Under the pieces are notes generated by a model. The model saw only the letters and a list, made by a program, of their open reading frames with translations, searched no databases and was not told the origin of the DNA. From contig CALUQG010000004.1 in assembly GCA_944322855.1 (NCBI GenBank), positions 30,013-94,012 of the forward strand: 64,000 nt of DNA. The letters run 5' to 3'. Source of the stretch: Candidatus Gastranaerophilales bacterium. GTDB lineage: Bacteria; Cyanobacteriota; Vampirovibrionia; Gastranaerophilales; Gastranaerophilaceae. Below are positions 54,962 to 61,728 of this stretch, piece by piece. Positions within the stretch are counted from its first letter, which is position 1; each line of letters begins with the position of its first letter. The position numbers were made by a program, and so were the translations under genes.

Positions 54962-54986
54962 GAACATACCTTGAAATCAAAACTAT

Positions 54987-55076
54987 GGAAAAGTGGCCGA
55001 GTAGGCTGAAGGCGGCACCCTGCTAAGGTGTTAGGTGGAGTAATCTGCCTCGAGGGTTCGAATCCCTCCTTTTCCG
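54987..55076 (+). tRNA. tRNA-Ser (anticodon GCU), copy 1
   Basis: The acceptor GGAAAAG/CUUUUCC is fully Watson-Crick. D-stem is GCC/GGC. Anticodon arm is GCACC-CUGCUAA-GGUGU. There is a long variable arm and a T-arm GAGGG-UUCGAAU-CCCUC. Length is 90 nt. Confidence 0.9.
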
Positions 55077-55082
55077 ATTTTT

Positions 55083-55114
55083 AATCCACCCTCAACAGAA
55101 AGGTGGATTTTTTA
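55083..55114 (+). terminator. Rho-independent terminator after tRNA-Ser copy 1
   Basis: ATCCACC-ctcaacagaaa-GGTGGAT followed by TTTTT. Confidence 0.8.
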
Positions 55115-55253
55115 ATGGTTTTTGTTGTATTAAATGTACTTTTTTGAGTAATTTGGTATGGTTTGACAGACATTACAGGAATTTGATTTTTTGAACTAAT
55201 AGGGCTGTGTTTCAAATATATCTTGATTTTTTAGTCGGAAATCACTAAAAATG

Positions 55254-55392
55254 AAATTCCTGAACTGGCAAAAAAGTCCGATTACTGTCCGTCAATGTCT
55301 AAAACCAAACAGTGGCTCAAAAGCTTAAATGGTGAGAATTTAGACACAGTTTAAGAAATTCCTGAACTGTCTGTCAAATATTCCTGAACTGG
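55254..55392 (+). repeat. Three direct copies of a 13-14 nt motif A[AT]ATTCCTGAACTG
   Basis: Copies are at 55254-55268, 55356-55370 and 55378-55392, in ORF-free DNA. Confidence 0.8.
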
Positions 55393-55418
55393 TTGTTCTT
55401 TTACAACCAGTGTTTTTT
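55389..55418 (+). terminator. Orphan terminator-like hairpin at the breakpoint of the tspO remnant
   Basis: Perfect 8-bp stem CTGGTTGT-tctttt-ACAACCAG followed by TGTTTTTT. No ORF lies upstream of it. Confidence 0.5.
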
Positions 55419-55601
55419 GGGCTTAAAAAGATTTTTTTAGCACTTTTAATTTGCACTCTGTTATGGCTCTCGATAATCTGCTTAATCTTACTGTTTTACA
55501 AACATTCCAAACTTGCCTCTTTACTTTTAGTACCATATTTTCTTTGGACATCTTTTGCATGGTATCTTAATTTTTCACTGTGGATTTTAAACAAAAATTA
55601 A
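55410..55601 (+). pseudogene. tspO: TspO/MBR (tryptophan-rich sensory protein) C-terminal remnant
   Basis: The translation ...QPVFFGLKK...LLWLSI...ASLLLVPYFLWTSFAWYLNFSLWILN matches the last ~2.5 TM helices of TspO (LLxPYxxWxxFAxxLN). The frame is open only back to a TAG at 55341-43, so the N-terminal ~85 aa are missing. Confidence 0.5.
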
Positions 55602-55700
55602 AATATAAAATTTTAAAATTAGTACTTGAAATAATTATTTTATGGCATAGACTTATTATGTAAATAGCAGTTTAACATTAATAACAGATAGCGTAATAGT

Positions 55701-56231
55701 ATGTCATTTATACATAGATTGTGTGAAAGGCTTGGAGAAAACAACAAGCCGATTTATACCGTTTTGGCCGTAGCCTGCGGGAAAGGTACAGTAAGACCTA
55801 TTTTAAGTATCACCGATAAAAAAGAGTCTCCTGATGCTAGAAAATATGCCGCATTGAGAGAATTAATGACGGAATTTATCGGAGTCCCAACAACAATGGC
55901 TCTTGGGTTACTCGGTGAAACTTGTGCAAATTTTATTGCAGGTAAAGGTTCAACAAAACACAAAAACGCAAGTTCTATATTATCGTTCTTGGGTATATGC
56001 CTTGCAGCAGGATATTTTGTTCCAAAATTCTGCAATATAGGAATGCCACCTGTTATGAAGAAATTAATGCCGAACTATGACCCAAATGCAACAAGCAGAT
56101 ACGATAATGCAGTAAAATTAACAAACACTGTAAACAAGCCTCAAAACTTGCAAAATACAACACAAATAAATTATTCAGTATATAAAGTAAGCAAAAATAC
56201 ACCGTATTTTCGCGCGGGAATGAGAGTGTAA
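55701..56231 (+). CDS. Hypothetical small membrane protein (paralogue A)
   Basis: The 176-aa ORF has two hydrophobic segments. It shares K.T.RP...DK....KYAA..E and a C-terminal SSI.S......PVM with the next gene. Confidence 0.5.
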   Translation: MSFIHRLCERLGENNKPIYTVLAVACGKGTVRPILSITDKKESPDARKYAALRELMTEFIGVPTTMALGLLGETCANFIAGKGSTKHKNASSILSFLGICLAAGYFVPKFCNIGMPPVMKKLMPNYDPNATSRYDNAVKLTNTVNKPQNLQNTTQINYSVYKVSKNTPYFRAGMRV

Positions 56232-56234
56232 ATT

Positions 56235-56834
56235 ATGCAAATCACACCATTACAAAAAACATTAATAAACATAAGGAAAACAGCAACAAATCCTAAATTT
56301 GCAGAATTTGCCAGAAACACAGTCTGCGCTATTTCTGTAGAAACCACATTAAAAGCAACAGGCAGACCGGCTTTTATTTACTACGACAAACACGCAAACA
56401 AACAATCAAAAAAATACGCGGCGACAAAAGAATTCTTGTACCAATCATTTTGTCTCGGTTTATATTTAAGCCTAATAAACAAGTTTAAAAACAAAACTTA
56501 CAAAATATTAAGCAAACATTTTGCAGACAAAAACCCCGAAGATAAAAGGAAACTTGAACTTTATGATAATTTCCAAGCAAAAATAAAAGGGGCCAAAGAC
56601 AAAGAAGCAAAAGCTCTATTGGAAAAACAGTTCAACAGACTTTTACATACAAACAAAGACTACCACTTTGGAAAAGGAGTAAAAGAAGTTAGCTCAATTA
56701 TATCAACAGTGATAATCCTTGCTTTGTGCGCACCGATATCATCACAAATCATATTACACCCTGTTATGGATATGATATTTAAAAAGCCATCAAAAAATCA
56801 AAAACAACAAAACAATGTCAAAACAAAAGCATAA
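56235..56834 (+). CDS. Hypothetical small membrane protein (paralogue B)
   Basis: The 199-aa ORF starts 4 nt after paralogue A. It has the same motif order (KATGRPAFIYYDKHANKQSKKYAATKE; SSIISTVIILALCAPISSQIILHPVM). Confidence 0.5.
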   Translation: MQITPLQKTLINIRKTATNPKFAEFARNTVCAISVETTLKATGRPAFIYYDKHANKQSKKYAATKEFLYQSFCLGLYLSLINKFKNKTYKILSKHFADKNPEDKRKLELYDNFQAKIKGAKDKEAKALLEKQFNRLLHTNKDYHFGKGVKEVSSIISTVIILALCAPISSQIILHPVMDMIFKKPSKNQKQQNNVKTKA

Positions 56835-56850
56835 TAATCTGCTAAAAATT

Positions 56851-56878
56851 TTGAGATATGTATTTTTTGTAGTAAAAT
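56851..56878 (+). promoter_or_regulatory. Candidate sigma-70 promoter for tRNA-Ser copy 2
   Basis: TTGAGA (56851-56), a 16-nt spacer, then TAAAAT (56873-78). The tRNA starts at 56889. Confidence 0.5.
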
Positions 56879-56888
56879 CAAAGAAAGA

Positions 56889-56978
56889 GGAGAGGTGTCC
56901 GAGTAGGCTGAAGGCGGCACCCTGCTAAGGTGTTAGGTGGAGTAATCTGCCTCGAGGGTTCGAATCCCTCCTTTTCCG
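56889..56978 (+). tRNA. tRNA-Ser (anticodon GCU), copy 2, with a chimeric-looking 5' end
   Basis: It is identical to copy 1 from nt 11 onward. The 5' end GGAGAGGUGU gives two G-U pairs in the acceptor stem and a U10-C25 mismatch in the D-stem. Confidence 0.8.
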
Positions 56979-56984
56979 ATTTTT

Positions 56985-57016
56985 AATCCACCCTCAACAG
57001 AAAGGTGGATTTTTTA
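56985..57016 (+). terminator. Rho-independent terminator after tRNA-Ser copy 2 (identical to 55083-55114)
   Basis: It lies within the 142-bp perfect duplication. Confidence 0.8.
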
Positions 57017-57101
57017 ATGGTTTTTGTTGTATTAAATGTATTTTAATGTCCAGTTCGTTGTTGTACTTTTTTGAGTGATTTAGTCGGAAGTGAATCAAAT
57101 A

Positions 57102-57311
57102 TCGGTTGGGCATATTCGCTCAACGACACTAAATATTAGCCGTCGGAAGTTGTTTGATTATACCAAAATCAAACTGGACGAAAACGGACTTTATTAGGAC
57201 ATAAAGTTACAAAGAATATTTTGAAATTAGGCTGAAACTAAACAAAAATCAAAGAAAATCCCGATTCCCAATAATGTCCAGTTTTATCGTTGGGCAGGTA
57301 TGCCCAACCGA
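57102..57311. repeat. MITE/REP-like element, copy A (~210 bp) with palindromic inverted termini
   Basis: The left end is TCGGTTGGGCATATTCGCTCAACGA. The right end reads TCGGTTGGGCATACCTGCCCAACGA on the other strand. No ORF lies inside. Confidence 0.65.
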
Positions 57312-57389
57312 TATTCCTTACGGTACTTTACTTTGGATGAAAAAAAATAAGATATGCCGAACAGCAAACCCCATTATCAAACCAAATTA

Positions 57390-58796
57390 TTATCCATATA
57401 AAATTGGTATCTCGTATCTTTCTGCAAATTTAGCAATATTTTCTGTGATTTCATAACCTTTAGGCAAATAAATACCTTCTATATTTGGACGCATAATGCC
57501 TTCAAACATTTTCTCTTTACTAGTTATAGTGGAGATTGCTTCATATAATTCATTATCCAATTTTTCGACATCTTCTATATATTTGACATTGCCTAATTTT
57601 TGAATTCTTTGATTATATTCATCAAGACTTATATTCATTTTTTTTCGAATCAAATTCGGGATATAATTATTAGCTTCATTTTCAGCTTGTAAAAAAAGAT
57701 TCTGTATATTATACAAATTTTTCTGTGCACCATAACCTGATGACATATCTCCTTTAGCTTGAATCATTAGATCTTTTGTTGATTTAGGCGAGATAATTAG
57801 TCCAATTCGATTTCCCCCTTTTAAATATCCGATTCCGCCTTTATAGCCCGTGCATAGTATTGCATTTGGATCTGTTAACAAGAGTCCTTCCAGACGTGAT
57901 AAATTCGCCTCATCCAAATTATGAATCATGTACTTCCCTGAGGCTGGCAATTCTCCGGTTTGAATTGAGAAGCCATGAGAGATTGTTGTATTCGTGGGGA
58001 TTGTTGCTAAAGAATTAGTTAATGGCGGTTTTATATCCAGTATACAACCGCTATTTATTTTTAATGGACTATTGGGTAAAAATTTCTTACCTCTTGGGAT
58101 TTGTTCTAATAAAGAATTTAAAATTCTATCATAAGTCGTTTCGACAGCTTTTTCATAAGCGTTTTTGCTTTGTAGATATGTCTTATAAGCAGTCTTATCA
58201 AACATATCTTTTGGCATTTGCGGGCTTTTTAAATCCTTTATATCCCTAAAAATAGCAATATCTGGTAAGTTTTCGACAAAGTTTTTATTACCGCCTCGAT
58301 AATTAATTGAAATAAATGAATTTATAAAACTTTTTTTATCTTCTATTGATAAATTCTTGAAGTTTTCCAGATTAACATCTTTAATTTTATCAAAATCTTT
58401 AAATTCAAGGCTATGTATTAGTTTTTCGTTTAAGGCTTCTTTTGATTTGATAAATTTTCCGATAGTTTCCGCAGAATGCCCTCTGCGTTTCACAACGTCA
58501 AGAAATCTTAGATATAAATTTGTTCCAATATCACTTTCTTGAATAAATTGTCTCGTTAAATTTAACGAATTTTCATTTAATAACCCTAAAACAACCTTTT
58601 GATCTCTCAAGTCGCTAAAAGTATTAATAATATGAGAGATTTCATTTGTTTTAATGCAATGACTTGCTGTTGGAATATATTTCAGCCCAACAGTATTAAC
58701 ATTTACAGGTCTTGTCGCAAGCAAACTTTTACCACCTGTCCGAGTCCAGGCAATAATTTCTTTGCCGATAGTTGTTCCAATCTTTTCTAATCCCAT
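57390..58796 (-). CDS. Hypothetical 468-aa protein (orphan)
   Basis: This is a long ORF with no recognised motif and no signal peptide. It is flanked by the two MITE-like copies. Confidence 0.5.
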   Translation of the reverse strand: MGLEKIGTTIGKEIIAWTRTGGKSLLATRPVNVNTVGLKYIPTASHCIKTNEISHIINTFSDLRDQKVVLGLLNENSLNLTRQFIQESDIGTNLYLRFLDVVKRRGHSAETIGKFIKSKEALNEKLIHSLEFKDFDKIKDVNLENFKNLSIEDKKSFINSFISINYRGGNKNFVENLPDIAIFRDIKDLKSPQMPKDMFDKTAYKTYLQSKNAYEKAVETTYDRILNSLLEQIPRGKKFLPNSPLKINSGCILDIKPPLTNSLATIPTNTTISHGFSIQTGELPASGKYMIHNLDEANLSRLEGLLLTDPNAILCTGYKGGIGYLKGGNRIGLIISPKSTKDLMIQAKGDMSSGYGAQKNLYNIQNLFLQAENEANNYIPNLIRKKMNISLDEYNQRIQKLGNVKYIEDVEKLDNELYEAISTITSKEKMFEGIMRPNIEGIYLPKGYEITENIAKFAERYEIPILYG

Positions 58797-58982
58797 AAAA
58801 ATATCTTTTATTTCCCCTAGTATTTATATAAAGTATTATCCTTTTCAAAAATTGCATAGAGATTACAAAATATTACAAAATGTATAACCTTTACCCACAC
58901 AGGAACAACAAAAAATAGTCAAACTATCTGTAACAAATAATCAAACCTTGTGTTCCTTTACAGTTGTCTATAGAATAAATTG

Positions 58983-59150
58983 TCGGTTGGGCATACTTGC
59001 CCAACAACTCTAAACATTAGCCGTCGGAAGCTGCTTGATATTGAATTCTTAAGCTGGTTTAAATCGGACTTTATTAGAAATTTTCAAAAATCAAAGAAAA
59101 TTCCGGTTCAATTAATTATTTATTAATCTTTGCCGGTGAAGCCCGACCTA
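58983..59150. repeat. MITE/REP-like element, copy B (shorter, same orientation as copy A)
   Basis: TCGGTTGGGCATACTTGCCCAACAACTCTAAACATTAGCCGTCGGAAGCTG... aligns with copy A through ...CGGACTTTATTAG and AAAAATCAAAGAAAAT[CT]CC. The distal terminus is degenerate. Confidence 0.6.
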
Positions 59151-60794: not shown

Positions 60795-61547
60795 TTATTT
60801 CATCAGCGGTAGTTTTTCAAGCATATTTTTTAATTTGATTGCAATTCTTGGCATTGGTTCTGCGACAGTCAGCCCTACAATATCGAATTCTTTTGCAATA
60901 TCATTAATTACTCTGACAACTTCATTTATTTTCATGCCGTTTTGTACTACTCCTACTGCAGCGATTATCTCCTTAGGATCTAAAACATCCATATCAAAAT
61001 GAATAGCCACATGTCTCGTATTCAAAGCTTTTAGCCATTCAATTATTTTTTTACTGTCCTGAGAAACTTCTGCTGAAGTCAGGTGTTTGATTCCGTATTC
61101 TTTCTGTCTGTCTTTGATTTGTTGTCTTTCCCAATCTCTTAGCCCTACGAATAATATTCTGTCAGTATTAATTTTCGCAGGAAGCTCAGCAATGATTTTT
61201 TCATCGCCTTTGCCTGTGATTGCGCTAACAGCCATTGCATGATAGCCGTTATATGTTTTATCTTCAGGCAGTGTTATATCAGGATGTGCATCAATCCAGA
61301 CTATTGCAATATCATTATTATATTTTTTTGCAAGGTAAGTAAAAGGCACAACGCTAACGGAACATTCTCCGCCGAGTACTGCTATTTTATCCGGATTTGC
61401 TTCTTCTATAATTTTTAGAGCATCTTTTCTCTGCTTTAAAATTTCTTTATAGCCGAGGATACCATTTTCTTCTATTCTGTTTATATTATCTGAAACAGGA
61501 ACTGTTAAAGTCTGATTTTTTGTTTCAGGAGCAAGAAAGTTAAGCAT
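60795..61547 (-). CDS. Arginase/agmatinase/formimidoylglutamase-family (ureohydrolase) protein, apparently N-terminally interrupted
   Basis: The family motifs VWIDAHPDI (DAHxD) and HFDMDVLDP (DxDxxDP) are present. The GGDHS position reads GGECS. The frame continues upstream to the ATG at 61665-61667 except for one TGA at 61626-61628. Confidence 0.65.
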   Translation of the reverse strand: MLNFLAPETKNQTLTVPVSDNINRIEENGILGYKEILKQRKDALKIIEEANPDKIAVLGGECSVSVVPFTYLAKKYNNDIAIVWIDAHPDITLPEDKTYNGYHAMAVSAITGKGDEKIIAELPAKINTDRILFVGLRDWERQQIKDRQKEYGIKHLTSAEVSQDSKKIIEWLKALNTRHVAIHFDMDVLDPKEIIAAVGVVQNGMKINEVVRVINDIAKEFDIVGLTVAEPMPRIAIKLKNMLEKLPLMK

Positions 61548-61728
61548 GAAAGAGCCTAAAATATAACCTCTTGAAGCCTTATCAGGTTCAAGTTCAGGAA
61601 GAAGACCTGCAATATTACCACCCTGTCACTGCGGATATAGCAATCTTATGATAGAATTTTTGTTCATGATATTGATTTCTTTCTCCTGATAAAATTTTTG
61701 TACATGCTTTGCTGTTTTTTTAAATTTC

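Follow-up and report, generated by a model that had tools for sequence, protein, structure and literature searches.

A serine tRNA gene acquired from a related species and probably overwritten by the resident isoacceptor in an uncultured gut bacterium

Two tRNA-Ser genes and the DNA between them

We analyzed a window of 64,000 nucleotides (nt) from a Candidatus Gastranaerophilales bacterium (GenBank assembly GCA_944322855.1, contig CALUQG010000004.1, positions 30,013 to 94,012; window coordinates are used below) that holds two tRNA-Ser genes, the second of them a chimera. The window lies on contig C4 of a metagenome bin (G000; 2.01 Mb, 33 contigs, 34% G+C), and all sequences compared were short-read metagenome assemblies. 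ARAGORN called both genes as tRNA-Ser(gct) (copy 1 at 54986-55077, copy 2 at 56888-56978), with Rfam tRNA scores of 57.1 and 43.0 bits. An earlier note on this DNA had pointed by eye to a perfect 142-bp duplication, and sequence comparison bore this out: positions 54997-55138 and 56899-57040 are identical (142/142) at an offset of 1902 bp, and each of the two tRNAs is a Ser(GCU). The repeat extends to 156 nt at 97% identity once three mismatches in tRNA nt 1-10 are allowed. These first 10 nt set the chimera, whose 5' start reads GGAGAGGUGU, apart from copy 1; copy 2 begins with GGAGAGGTGT and copy 1 with GGAAAAGTGG, the sole differences being at nt 4, 6, and 10. The 5' end of copy 2 pairs as the note had described, with two acceptor-stem G-U pairs and one mismatch (G4.U69, G6.U67, and U10.C25).

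Each copy had also been credited with a promoter-like sequence. One is present at copy 2 (TTGAGA-16-TAAAAT, ending 10 nt upstream of the gene), but upstream of copy 1 there was no comparable match. The trailer of copy 1 contains a terminator hairpin (TCCACC...GGTGGA plus T6 at 55085-55107) and ends in TTAAA. What the note took for a 22-bp insertion after the identity block is an offset shift of 25 nt (family D4; repeat spacing of 1927 versus 1902), and the short likeness that resumes beyond it is real and stems from related TGTA...TACA transposon ends. Between the copies, tspO is indeed decayed, being reduced to a 65-codon 3' fragment (Pfam TspO_MBR, E = 2.8e-16, profile positions 87-145 only), and the iterated motif is GAAATTCCTGAACTG, in three copies. 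The two proteins described as paralogous orphans, orf176 and orf199, have no Pfam match, and their likeness to each other is weak (BLASTP E = 3e-4 over 42 amino acids [aa]). A Pfam scan of the bracketed frames (orf176, orf199, and the tspO remnant) gave TspO_MBR as its sole match and no integrase or recombinase, in keeping with the note.

Table 1. Features of the locus in window coordinates
Feature	Position	Strand	Evidence
Copy 1, native tRNA-Ser(GCU), stems fully paired, CCA not encoded	54987..55076	+	ARAGORN, Rfam 57.1 bits, Trx-CcdA synteny
Copy 1 trailer, within the 142-bp identity block	55077..55134	+	Sequence
ORF-free 271-bp composite of transposon-end sequences, TGTAC...TTTTACA	55135..55405		Likeness to other such ends
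tspO 3' fragment, last 65 codons; first base of the acquired segment	55406..55601	+	Pfam TspO_MBR
orf176, orphan protein in the acquired segment	55701..56231	+	97.7% aa identity to L094; no Pfam match
orf199, orphan protein in the acquired segment	56235..56834	+	99.5% aa identity to L094; no Pfam match
Promoter-like TTGAGA-16-TAAAAT of the imported tRNA gene	56851..56878	+	Identical upstream of tRNA-Ser(CGA) in donor contig L094
Chimeric tRNA, whole	56889-56978	+	Rfam 43.0 bits
Remnant of imported tRNA-Ser(CGA), nt 1-16, GGAGAGGTGTCCGAGT	56889..56904	+	Matches alleles A/B and donor tRNA
Tract read as overwritten: tRNA-Ser(GCU) nt 17-90 plus 62 nt of trailer including terminator	56905..57040	+	100% identical to copy 1
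Start of tRNA-Ser-linked module, TGTATTTTAATGTCC..., interrupted after 25 nt	57037..57061		Uninterrupted in alleles A/B
1901-bp mobile element TGTAC...TTTACA with orf468 (57390-58796, minus)	57062..58962	-	Target duplication, empty site
Module continuation, with hairpin GGTTGGGCATACTTGCCCAAC, GCCGTCGGAAG, CGGACTTTATTAG	58968..59150		Collinear with alleles A/B

Copy 1 is the resident, native tRNA-Ser(GCU) gene. Trx-CcdA adjoins tRNA-Ser(GCT) in all 15 congeneric loci with enough flanking sequence, each genome having a single Ser(GCT) gene, and nothing downstream of the gene is conserved across those loci. G10 occurs in the Ser(GCT) genes of all congeners, and the acceptor stems co-vary (GGAGAAG in most congeners; GGAAAAG in G000, G008, and G019). 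Copy 1 and its trailer are invariant across conspecific contigs, whichever of the three alleles described below they carry. Contigs end at most about 900 bp from tRNA-Ser(GCT) in nine congeneric assemblies (G002, G004, G005, G006, G011, G018, G019, G020, and G024), a pattern that points to repeats or to variation among strains at this position throughout the genus.

The 1.5-kb bracketed segment is foreign: a recent import from a congener resembling G043, which arrived with its tRNA-Ser(CGA) gene. The order MatE-HAD-LUD-full tspO-orf176-orf199-tRNA-Ser(CGA) is found in contigs L089, L094, L095, and L096 and in genome G043, and the similarity of the donor contigs L089, L094, and L095 to the window begins exactly at 55406. 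Over 55406-56904, DNA identity is 97.3% to L094, 99.4% to L095, and 96.5% to G043:C39 (the tspO fragment is 98.5% identical to L094 in protein), whereas the flanking MatE, HAD, and LUD genes of the donor contigs share 81, 60, and 77% protein identity, respectively, with their G000 orthologues on C3 (about 70-74% in DNA). This difference argues for a recent transfer. The orf176-orf199 pair stands beside tRNA-Ser(CGA) as the usual synteny in the genus, and the donor species genome G043 has a single Ser(CGA) gene, located at the end of the orf176-orf199 segment. The haplotype of contig L095 is that of alleles A and B (see below).

G000 has its own Ser(CGA) gene on C14, with flanks different from those of the imported gene, and the import was therefore redundant. 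The inventory proposed by the earlier note as a way to reveal a missing isoacceptor gave GCT twice, TGA, CGA (C14), and GGA (C19), so that no serine isoacceptor is missing. Nucleotides 1-16 of copy 2 also match, without a difference, the starts of the Ser(CGA) and Ser(GGA) genes that G000 has on C14 and C19; we rejected these as the source, as the flanks point to the imported Ser(CGA) paralogue.

Three alleles of the second gene and their origin

To place the chimera among related strains, we gathered conspecific contigs by exact-protein look-ups in independent metagenomes. All of them have in common the stretch from the truncated tspO through orf199, the promoter, and tRNA nt 1-16, and all are collinear on the right flank (orf216, arginase onward). 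At the position of copy 2 (site 2, with copy 1 at site 1), they fall into three alleles. Allele A (six samples: L055, L056/L085, L086, L088, L066, and L067) has a complete tRNA-Ser(CGA) gene with an encoded CCA, identical to the gene of the donor species. Its stems are perfect in L066 and L067, with A3.A70 in L055 and A49.C65 in L056, L085, L086, and L088. Allele B (four samples: L057/L065, L058, L090, and L068) is Ser(CGA) through the T-loop and then continues, from a joint in the T-arm at AATCCC, as the 3' T-stem, acceptor strand, and trailer of Ser(GCU), followed by 53 nt of a transposon-type left end. Allele C, the form in the window, is Ser(CGA) for nt 1-16 and then Ser(GCU) plus 62 nt of trailer; its left joint lies inside CCGAGT (56899-56904), which is common to both parents. 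The Rfam score is 47.8 bits for the intact Ser(CGA), 42.9 (A3.A70) and 40.5 (A49.C65) for the mutated A alleles, 39.1 for B, and 43.0 for C.

Besides G000, allele C was found in six samples (L051, L052/L087, L053, L054, L059, and L092), with contigs L051, L052, and L059 spanning both tRNA copies. The copy 2 tract and the identity block were thus assembled alike in six further public samples, which argues against a one-off assembly error. Allele C has the look of a young clone: its contigs show 100% identity throughout 1499 bp, and the 1901-bp insertion is present in every one. Its tract matches copy 1 in 142 of 142 positions. In allele B, three trailer sites of the tract depart from the resident copy 1, and the transposon-end variant is a different one; by these substitutions, the tract may be either older or derived from a different template. 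One allele B contig, L090, shares an 8-SNP (single-nucleotide polymorphism) patch (55764-55814) with all allele C contigs, and this patch suggests that C arose on a B-like background. The 27 remaining species of the genus all lack the chimeric joints. At site 1, none of the A, B, or C strains showed a Ser(GCU)/Ser(CGA) hybrid (the reciprocal product), and a scan of JGI metagenome contigs with the sequence upstream of site 2 gave no match. The two independent stem-breaking changes among the A alleles indicate, as far as sequence goes, relaxed constraint on the imported gene and little constraint at site 2, which makes neutrality the default reading.

The A alleles also refute the picture of a repeat that brackets an insert, on the terms that the earlier note had set for it: conspecific strains have two different tRNA-Ser genes at this locus with the same genes between them. 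The empty site with a single tRNA-Ser that the earlier note had looked to was found in none of the conspecifics (22 Trx-bearing contigs read, ten examined). One of its three proposals, gene conversion over a different Ser isoacceptor, agrees with the conspecific strains, which carry a full or half-converted Ser(CGA) gene at the same site and with the same flanks. From A to B to C, the donor-species sequence shrinks and Ser(GCU) sequence with its trailer takes its place, while copy 1 stays untouched, which is the pattern of non-reciprocal recombination. We therefore conclude, with a probability of roughly 0.85, that the imported redundant isoacceptor was overwritten by non-reciprocal recombination (gene conversion). 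This is ordinary recombination caught in steps and not a new kind of element. Lost sequence cannot return, so allele A is ancestral by parsimony, and B and C would have followed in that order.

In the proposed course of events, the 1.5-kb segment would have lodged just downstream of copy 1, among the transposon ends that pile up behind tRNA-Ser genes. The imported gene would then have been replaced from nt 17 to 62 nt beyond its 3' end, with a tRNA-Ser(GCU) locus as the template, which may have been the neighboring copy 1 or, less probably, its counterpart in a conspecific strain. The left joint would have formed in the 6-nt microhomology CCGAGT in the D-arm and the right joint at the TGTA common to two transposon-type termini, and the product would be a second Ser(GCU) gene that retains a foreign promoter and its first 16 nt. 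If copy 1 was the template, the approximately 130 bp of 97% homology in allele B could have started the exchange, running leftwards to CCGAGT; this route would also require the loss of a 53-nt end fragment between ATGTA repeats. A template from an island-free conspecific strain, or a circle integrated by a single crossover, would account for the likeness of the right side of allele C to an undisturbed Ser(GCU) locus. The enzymology may have been RecA-type repair with one end in microhomology.

Several points weigh against overwriting as described here. The linkage across the 142-bp repeat in allele C rests on the assemblers' repeat resolution, the repeat being longer than usual k-mers. At the right joint of allele C, the identity amounts to 4-5 nt (TGTA/ATGTA), less than simple RecA-dependent conversion would usually have. 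For allele B, a template (a trailer with three substitutions, together with 53 nt of uninterrupted transposon left end) was found in no contig, and a conspecific template likewise has no observed donor, there being no island-free conspecific among the Trx-bearing contigs mentioned above. The A-to-B-to-C order rests on parsimony plus the single 8-SNP patch shared by L090 and C. Finally, the chimera has U10.C25 in its D-stem and two G.U pairs in its acceptor stem, and at minimum free energy it does not fold into a clean cloverleaf. As sources of the allele B tract or the copy 1 trailer, other species were considered and rejected, the trailers of G008, G019, G004, G006, G013, and G043 all being different.

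The layout of allele C would also follow from a Campbell-type event, which we regard as quite unlikely. A 1.9-kb circle with the trailer, the transposon ends, the 3' part of tspO, orf176, orf199, and the chimeric tRNA would have been excised from an allele A chromosome between its tRNA-Ser genes and integrated at an island-free Ser(GCU) locus; unequal exchange between an A-type and an island-free chromosome would be an equivalent route. The 142-bp repeat would then be the homology used in the crossover, now present twice, and new circles or tandem copies may still form. From nt 17 rightwards (body, terminator, TTAAA, and TGTATTTTAATGTCC), allele C is indeed laid out as a native Ser(GCU) locus (compare G006), a direct repeat around exactly one unit is what a single crossover leaves, and an allele B tract that is not identical to copy 1 suggests a template on another chromosome. 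However, no island-free conspecific was seen among the 22 contigs read, copy 1 shows no reciprocal product, and an allele A chromosome would be required first anyway. Assemblies alone do not separate this event from conversion. Mis-assembly, in which reads of the Ser(GCU) and Ser(CGA) genes from mixed strains were collapsed or wrongly joined, is a very improbable source of the chimera. In its favor, the genome is a bin of 33 contigs, strains differ in the allele they carry, and common k-mers are too short to cover the repeat; yet the joints GGTGT/CCGAGTAGG and AAATGTA/TTTTAATG are identical in the six other samples, which come from at least two projects and different assemblers, each joint is short enough for single reads, and the identity of the C contigs over 1499 bp goes with a linked 1901-bp insertion.

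Tyrosine-integrase islands in tRNA genes are bounded by direct repeats (attL and attR) made of the 3' part of the tRNA. The locus shares with them foreign DNA that immediately follows a tRNA gene and a direct repeat that contains tRNA sequence at either side; such genes are classic targets of integration, the downstream side of tRNA-Ser(GCU) varies between species, and contigs of many relatives break at this gene. Site-specific integration into tRNA-Ser(GCU) with later loss of the integrase is nevertheless scarcely credible. Allele A has the insert without any repeat, and the foreign DNA begins at 55406, which is 268 nt past repeat 1 and so off the repeat. With its start at nt 11 and its end 62 nt beyond the tRNA, the repeat does not match a core in the T-loop or the anticodon loop, and the 10 nt before repeat 2 are a perfect Ser(CGA) 5' end, a genuine tRNA start preceded by a promoter. 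The bracket holds no integrase, and the genome has no rve-type gene (tyrosine and serine recombinases were not searched genome-wide). Of the suggestion that an element carried in its own tRNA-Ser, what stands is that the acquired DNA brought Ser(CGA); the repeats are not its ends, and no integrase was involved. The same very low credence goes to an old tandem duplication of the tRNA-Ser(GCU) region in which all but the tRNA block diverged, another proposal of the earlier note. It would account for direct tandem repeats and for the traces of similarity after both copies, but the DNA between the copies is 97-99% identical to the tspO-orf176-orf199-tRNA-Ser(CGA) locus of another species, those traces are mobile-element termini that are found elsewhere too, and congeners have one Ser(GCT) gene.

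Mobile elements beside the tRNA genes

The foreign segment is joined to copy 1 through the ORF-free 271-bp composite, which holds three ATTCCTGAACTG repeats and one inverted pair. Its flanks (TTAAA on the left, ACCAG on the right) form no target duplication. At the point corresponding to 55406, the intact tspO of the donor species reads ...GGACACCAGTG, and the ACCAG flank looks, by sequence, like half of a 5-bp target duplication. With unlike flanks and half a duplication, the composite is best explained as a recombinant joint between two insertions. Parts of it recur at contig ends on C16 (behind tRNA-Met) and C10 and match two loci in G043 at 95-96% identity, and five conspecific contigs (L060-L064) break inside it. 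A stretch of 102 bp (55268-55369) between two GAAATTCCTGAACTG repeats is absent from the allele A strains L055, L056, L085, L086, and L088, as well as from L061; this indel polymorphism is a matter of repeat slippage or recombination.

Behind copy 2, the tRNA-Ser-linked module starts with 25 nt (TGTATTTTAATGTCCAGTTCGTTGT) and is then split by the 1901-bp element, which is flanked by the target duplication GTTGT (57057-57061 on the left, 58963-58967 on the right) and whose empty site is visible in alleles A and B. Copies of the element that are 99.8-99.9% identical occur in at least eight unrelated contexts, five of them with their own 5-bp duplications, and in six contexts the duplications read GTTGT, ATTCT, TAAAT, CTGAT, GTGGG, and TCAGT. 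The element is also present in the reference genomes of at least three other species, and two copies (L081 and L083) lie directly behind a tRNA gene. We found the exact orf468 protein in 106 index blocks, 60 on contigs shorter than 2 kb. The 1901 bp contain no transposase gene, as orf468 has no Pfam match, and rve (PF00665) is absent from G000, where other transposase families were not searched. Relatives of orf468 are effector-like. Its N-terminal 42 aa (MGLEKIGTTIGKEIIAWTRTGGKSLLATRPVNVNTVGLKYIP; 58671-58796, minus strand) are 70-80% identical to the N termini of many otherwise unrelated proteins of 260-450 aa, some of which carry PF03496 (ADP-ribosyltransferase exoenzyme) or PF05394, and orf468 looks like a member of a putative polymorphic effector family with a common N-terminal module.

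Tn7-like and Mu-like DDE transposons have TGT...ACA termini, make 5-bp target duplications, and insert behind conserved genes such as tRNA genes. The 1901-bp orf468 element resembles them in its TGTA...TACA termini and 5-bp duplications, and related ends lie at a fixed point behind tRNA-Ser(GCU) (TTAAA/TGTA...) and other tRNA genes. It differs from them in lacking a transposase gene and in having minimal terminal repeats. The left end of the element resembles TGTACTTTTTTGAGT, which stands behind copy 1 at 55135. Copies 1 and 2 both read TTAAA/TGTA at an equal distance from the terminator, which suggests a possible tRNA-defined landing site for TGTA-ended elements. The near match between the tRNA offset (1902 bp) and the element length (1901 bp) is taken as a coincidence; only a short end motif is common to the two stretches.

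The TGTATTTT module lies behind tRNA-Ser genes of several isoacceptors in many congeners, and in G006 it directly follows the terminator of the single Ser(GCT) gene. In variants of the TGTATTTTAATGTCC module across the genus, the start is followed by the hairpin GGTTGGGCATAC..GCCCAAC, GTCGGAAG, and CGGACTTTATTAG, at 10-560 bp behind tRNA-Ser genes. Further G000 sites are at C19:38569, C3:44740, C14:248, and C10:61002, and the module is also found behind tRNA-Ala. Its continuation at 58968-59150 is 77% similar to 57092-57197 inside the mobile element. A search for a right end or target duplication of the module (ACA+TTAAA, ACA+ACGGG, and similar) found none; the module may be a transposon end or a conserved tRNA-linked element.

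Three further observations concern the surroundings. A palindromic repeat, GTTGGGCAGGTATGCCCAACCG, occurs at 57289-57330 and at more than 30 sites genome-wide, on many contigs and in both orientations; its copies form an array with a spacing of 50 bp at the end of C11, and it behaves like a repetitive extragenic palindromic (REP)-type element. On C10 (60700-61215), two copies of about 100 nt (..AAATCCTC.CTGGTTCTA.TCTTCGAGCATCCTGATCTGTAAGGCTCG.., each ending in a T-run) lie beside transposon-end fragments at the contig end and may be a structured RNA or a repeat. The arginase-family gene (60795-61667, minus strand) was called at 290 aa in the allele A/B contigs L055-L057, L065-L068, and L070-L074 and at 250 aa in G000 and L069 (allele C lineage), a difference that fits a lineage-specific premature stop or a truncated start.

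The chimeric tRNA and its relation to known systems

The chimera is recognized by tRNA models as a cloverleaf with a long variable arm (Ser(gct) in ARAGORN; 43.0 bits in Rfam against a gathering score of 29), although it scores below both of its parents (57.1 and 47.8). The identity elements for the seryl-tRNA synthetase of E. coli are G1-C72, G2-C71, A3-U70, C11-G24, G73, and the variable arm. All of these positions are kept in the chimera, in stems weakened by G4.U69, G6.U67, and U10.C25. Its minimum free energy (MFE) is -32.1 versus -35.5 kcal/mol, and the MFE structure shows a misfolded D and anticodon region; the parental Ser(CGA) also has no Watson-Crick 10-25 pair (U.U). A promoter-like site and a copied terminator accompany the gene. 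AGY codons are used at 16.6 per 1000 and UCG at 3.4 per 1000 (an approximately 5-fold difference), and by this measure an additional Ser(GCU) gene would be at least as useful as an additional Ser(CGA) gene. It is conceivable, though we think rather unlikely, that overwriting is adaptive and recurrent and that the chimera is expressed and charged, which would make it a case of natural isoacceptor switching by recombination in bacteria. Under that scenario, the shared downstream module and the TGTA...TACA landing site of tRNA-Ser genes of all isoacceptors would serve as portable homology that moves segments of tRNA plus cargo between species, and the resident genome would re-template a redundant imported tRNA into the isoacceptor needed more.

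One of the closest parallels is the intergenic (ectopic) conversion of dispersed serine tRNA genes in Schizosaccharomyces pombe, as reported by Amstutz et al. (1985, Cell 40:879) and cited in PMC4981973. Both cases, to go by that citation, involve non-reciprocal transfer between non-allelic serine tRNA genes, an unchanged donor, and hybrids with tract ends inside the tRNA. Here, however, the partners are different isoacceptors with identity runs of about 6 nt at the joint, the tract reaches 62 nt beyond the gene, and the recipient is bacterial and horizontally acquired and known from natural alleles rather than from selection in crosses. The concerted evolution of tRNA genes in general is a kindred phenomenon. 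Homology-facilitated illegitimate recombination, a concept from naturally transformable bacteria (PMC6382021, PMC8116780), is alike in that one tract end lies in a microhomology of a few nucleotides while the other side has, or may have had, a longer anchor (the B trailer or the tRNA-linked module). It is unlike our case in that the template here may have come from within the chromosome itself, allele C has no more than a microhomology at its right joint too, and there is no sign of transformability.

In its outcome, the locus resembles tRNA remolding, or anticodon shift (PMC4981973, PMC4783518; for experimental anticodon switching in yeast, see PMC3868979), which is reported to be rare even between isoacceptors in bacteria (PMC4981973). 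The gene at the locus goes from reading UCG to reading AGY codons and still specifies a serine tRNA. Remolding, however, is defined by an anticodon point mutation in a duplicated gene, whereas here the anticodon arm, the variable arm, the T-arm, and the 3' acceptor strand have all been replaced by recombination, and the change from CGA to GCU is unreachable by a single substitution.

The odd chimeric tRNA is thus explained without a new mobile element. The locus is a clear natural example of a known process, with an outcome like that of isoacceptor remolding but reached via recombination. Natural series of this sort are rare: strains of a single uncultured gut species show an acquired tRNA gene in its intact, half-converted, and almost fully converted states. 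Isoacceptor changes are usually attributed to point mutation of the anticodon; here the change would have come about by recombination at 6-nt microhomologies in the D-arm and the T-arm. In the longer term, the transposon ends and the 1901-bp effector-like cassette, which passes from species to species, may prove of more interest than the duplication. For work on metagenome bins, identical tRNA copies can mask a recent conversion, and the orthology of tRNA genes should be judged by their flanks and not by their sequence.

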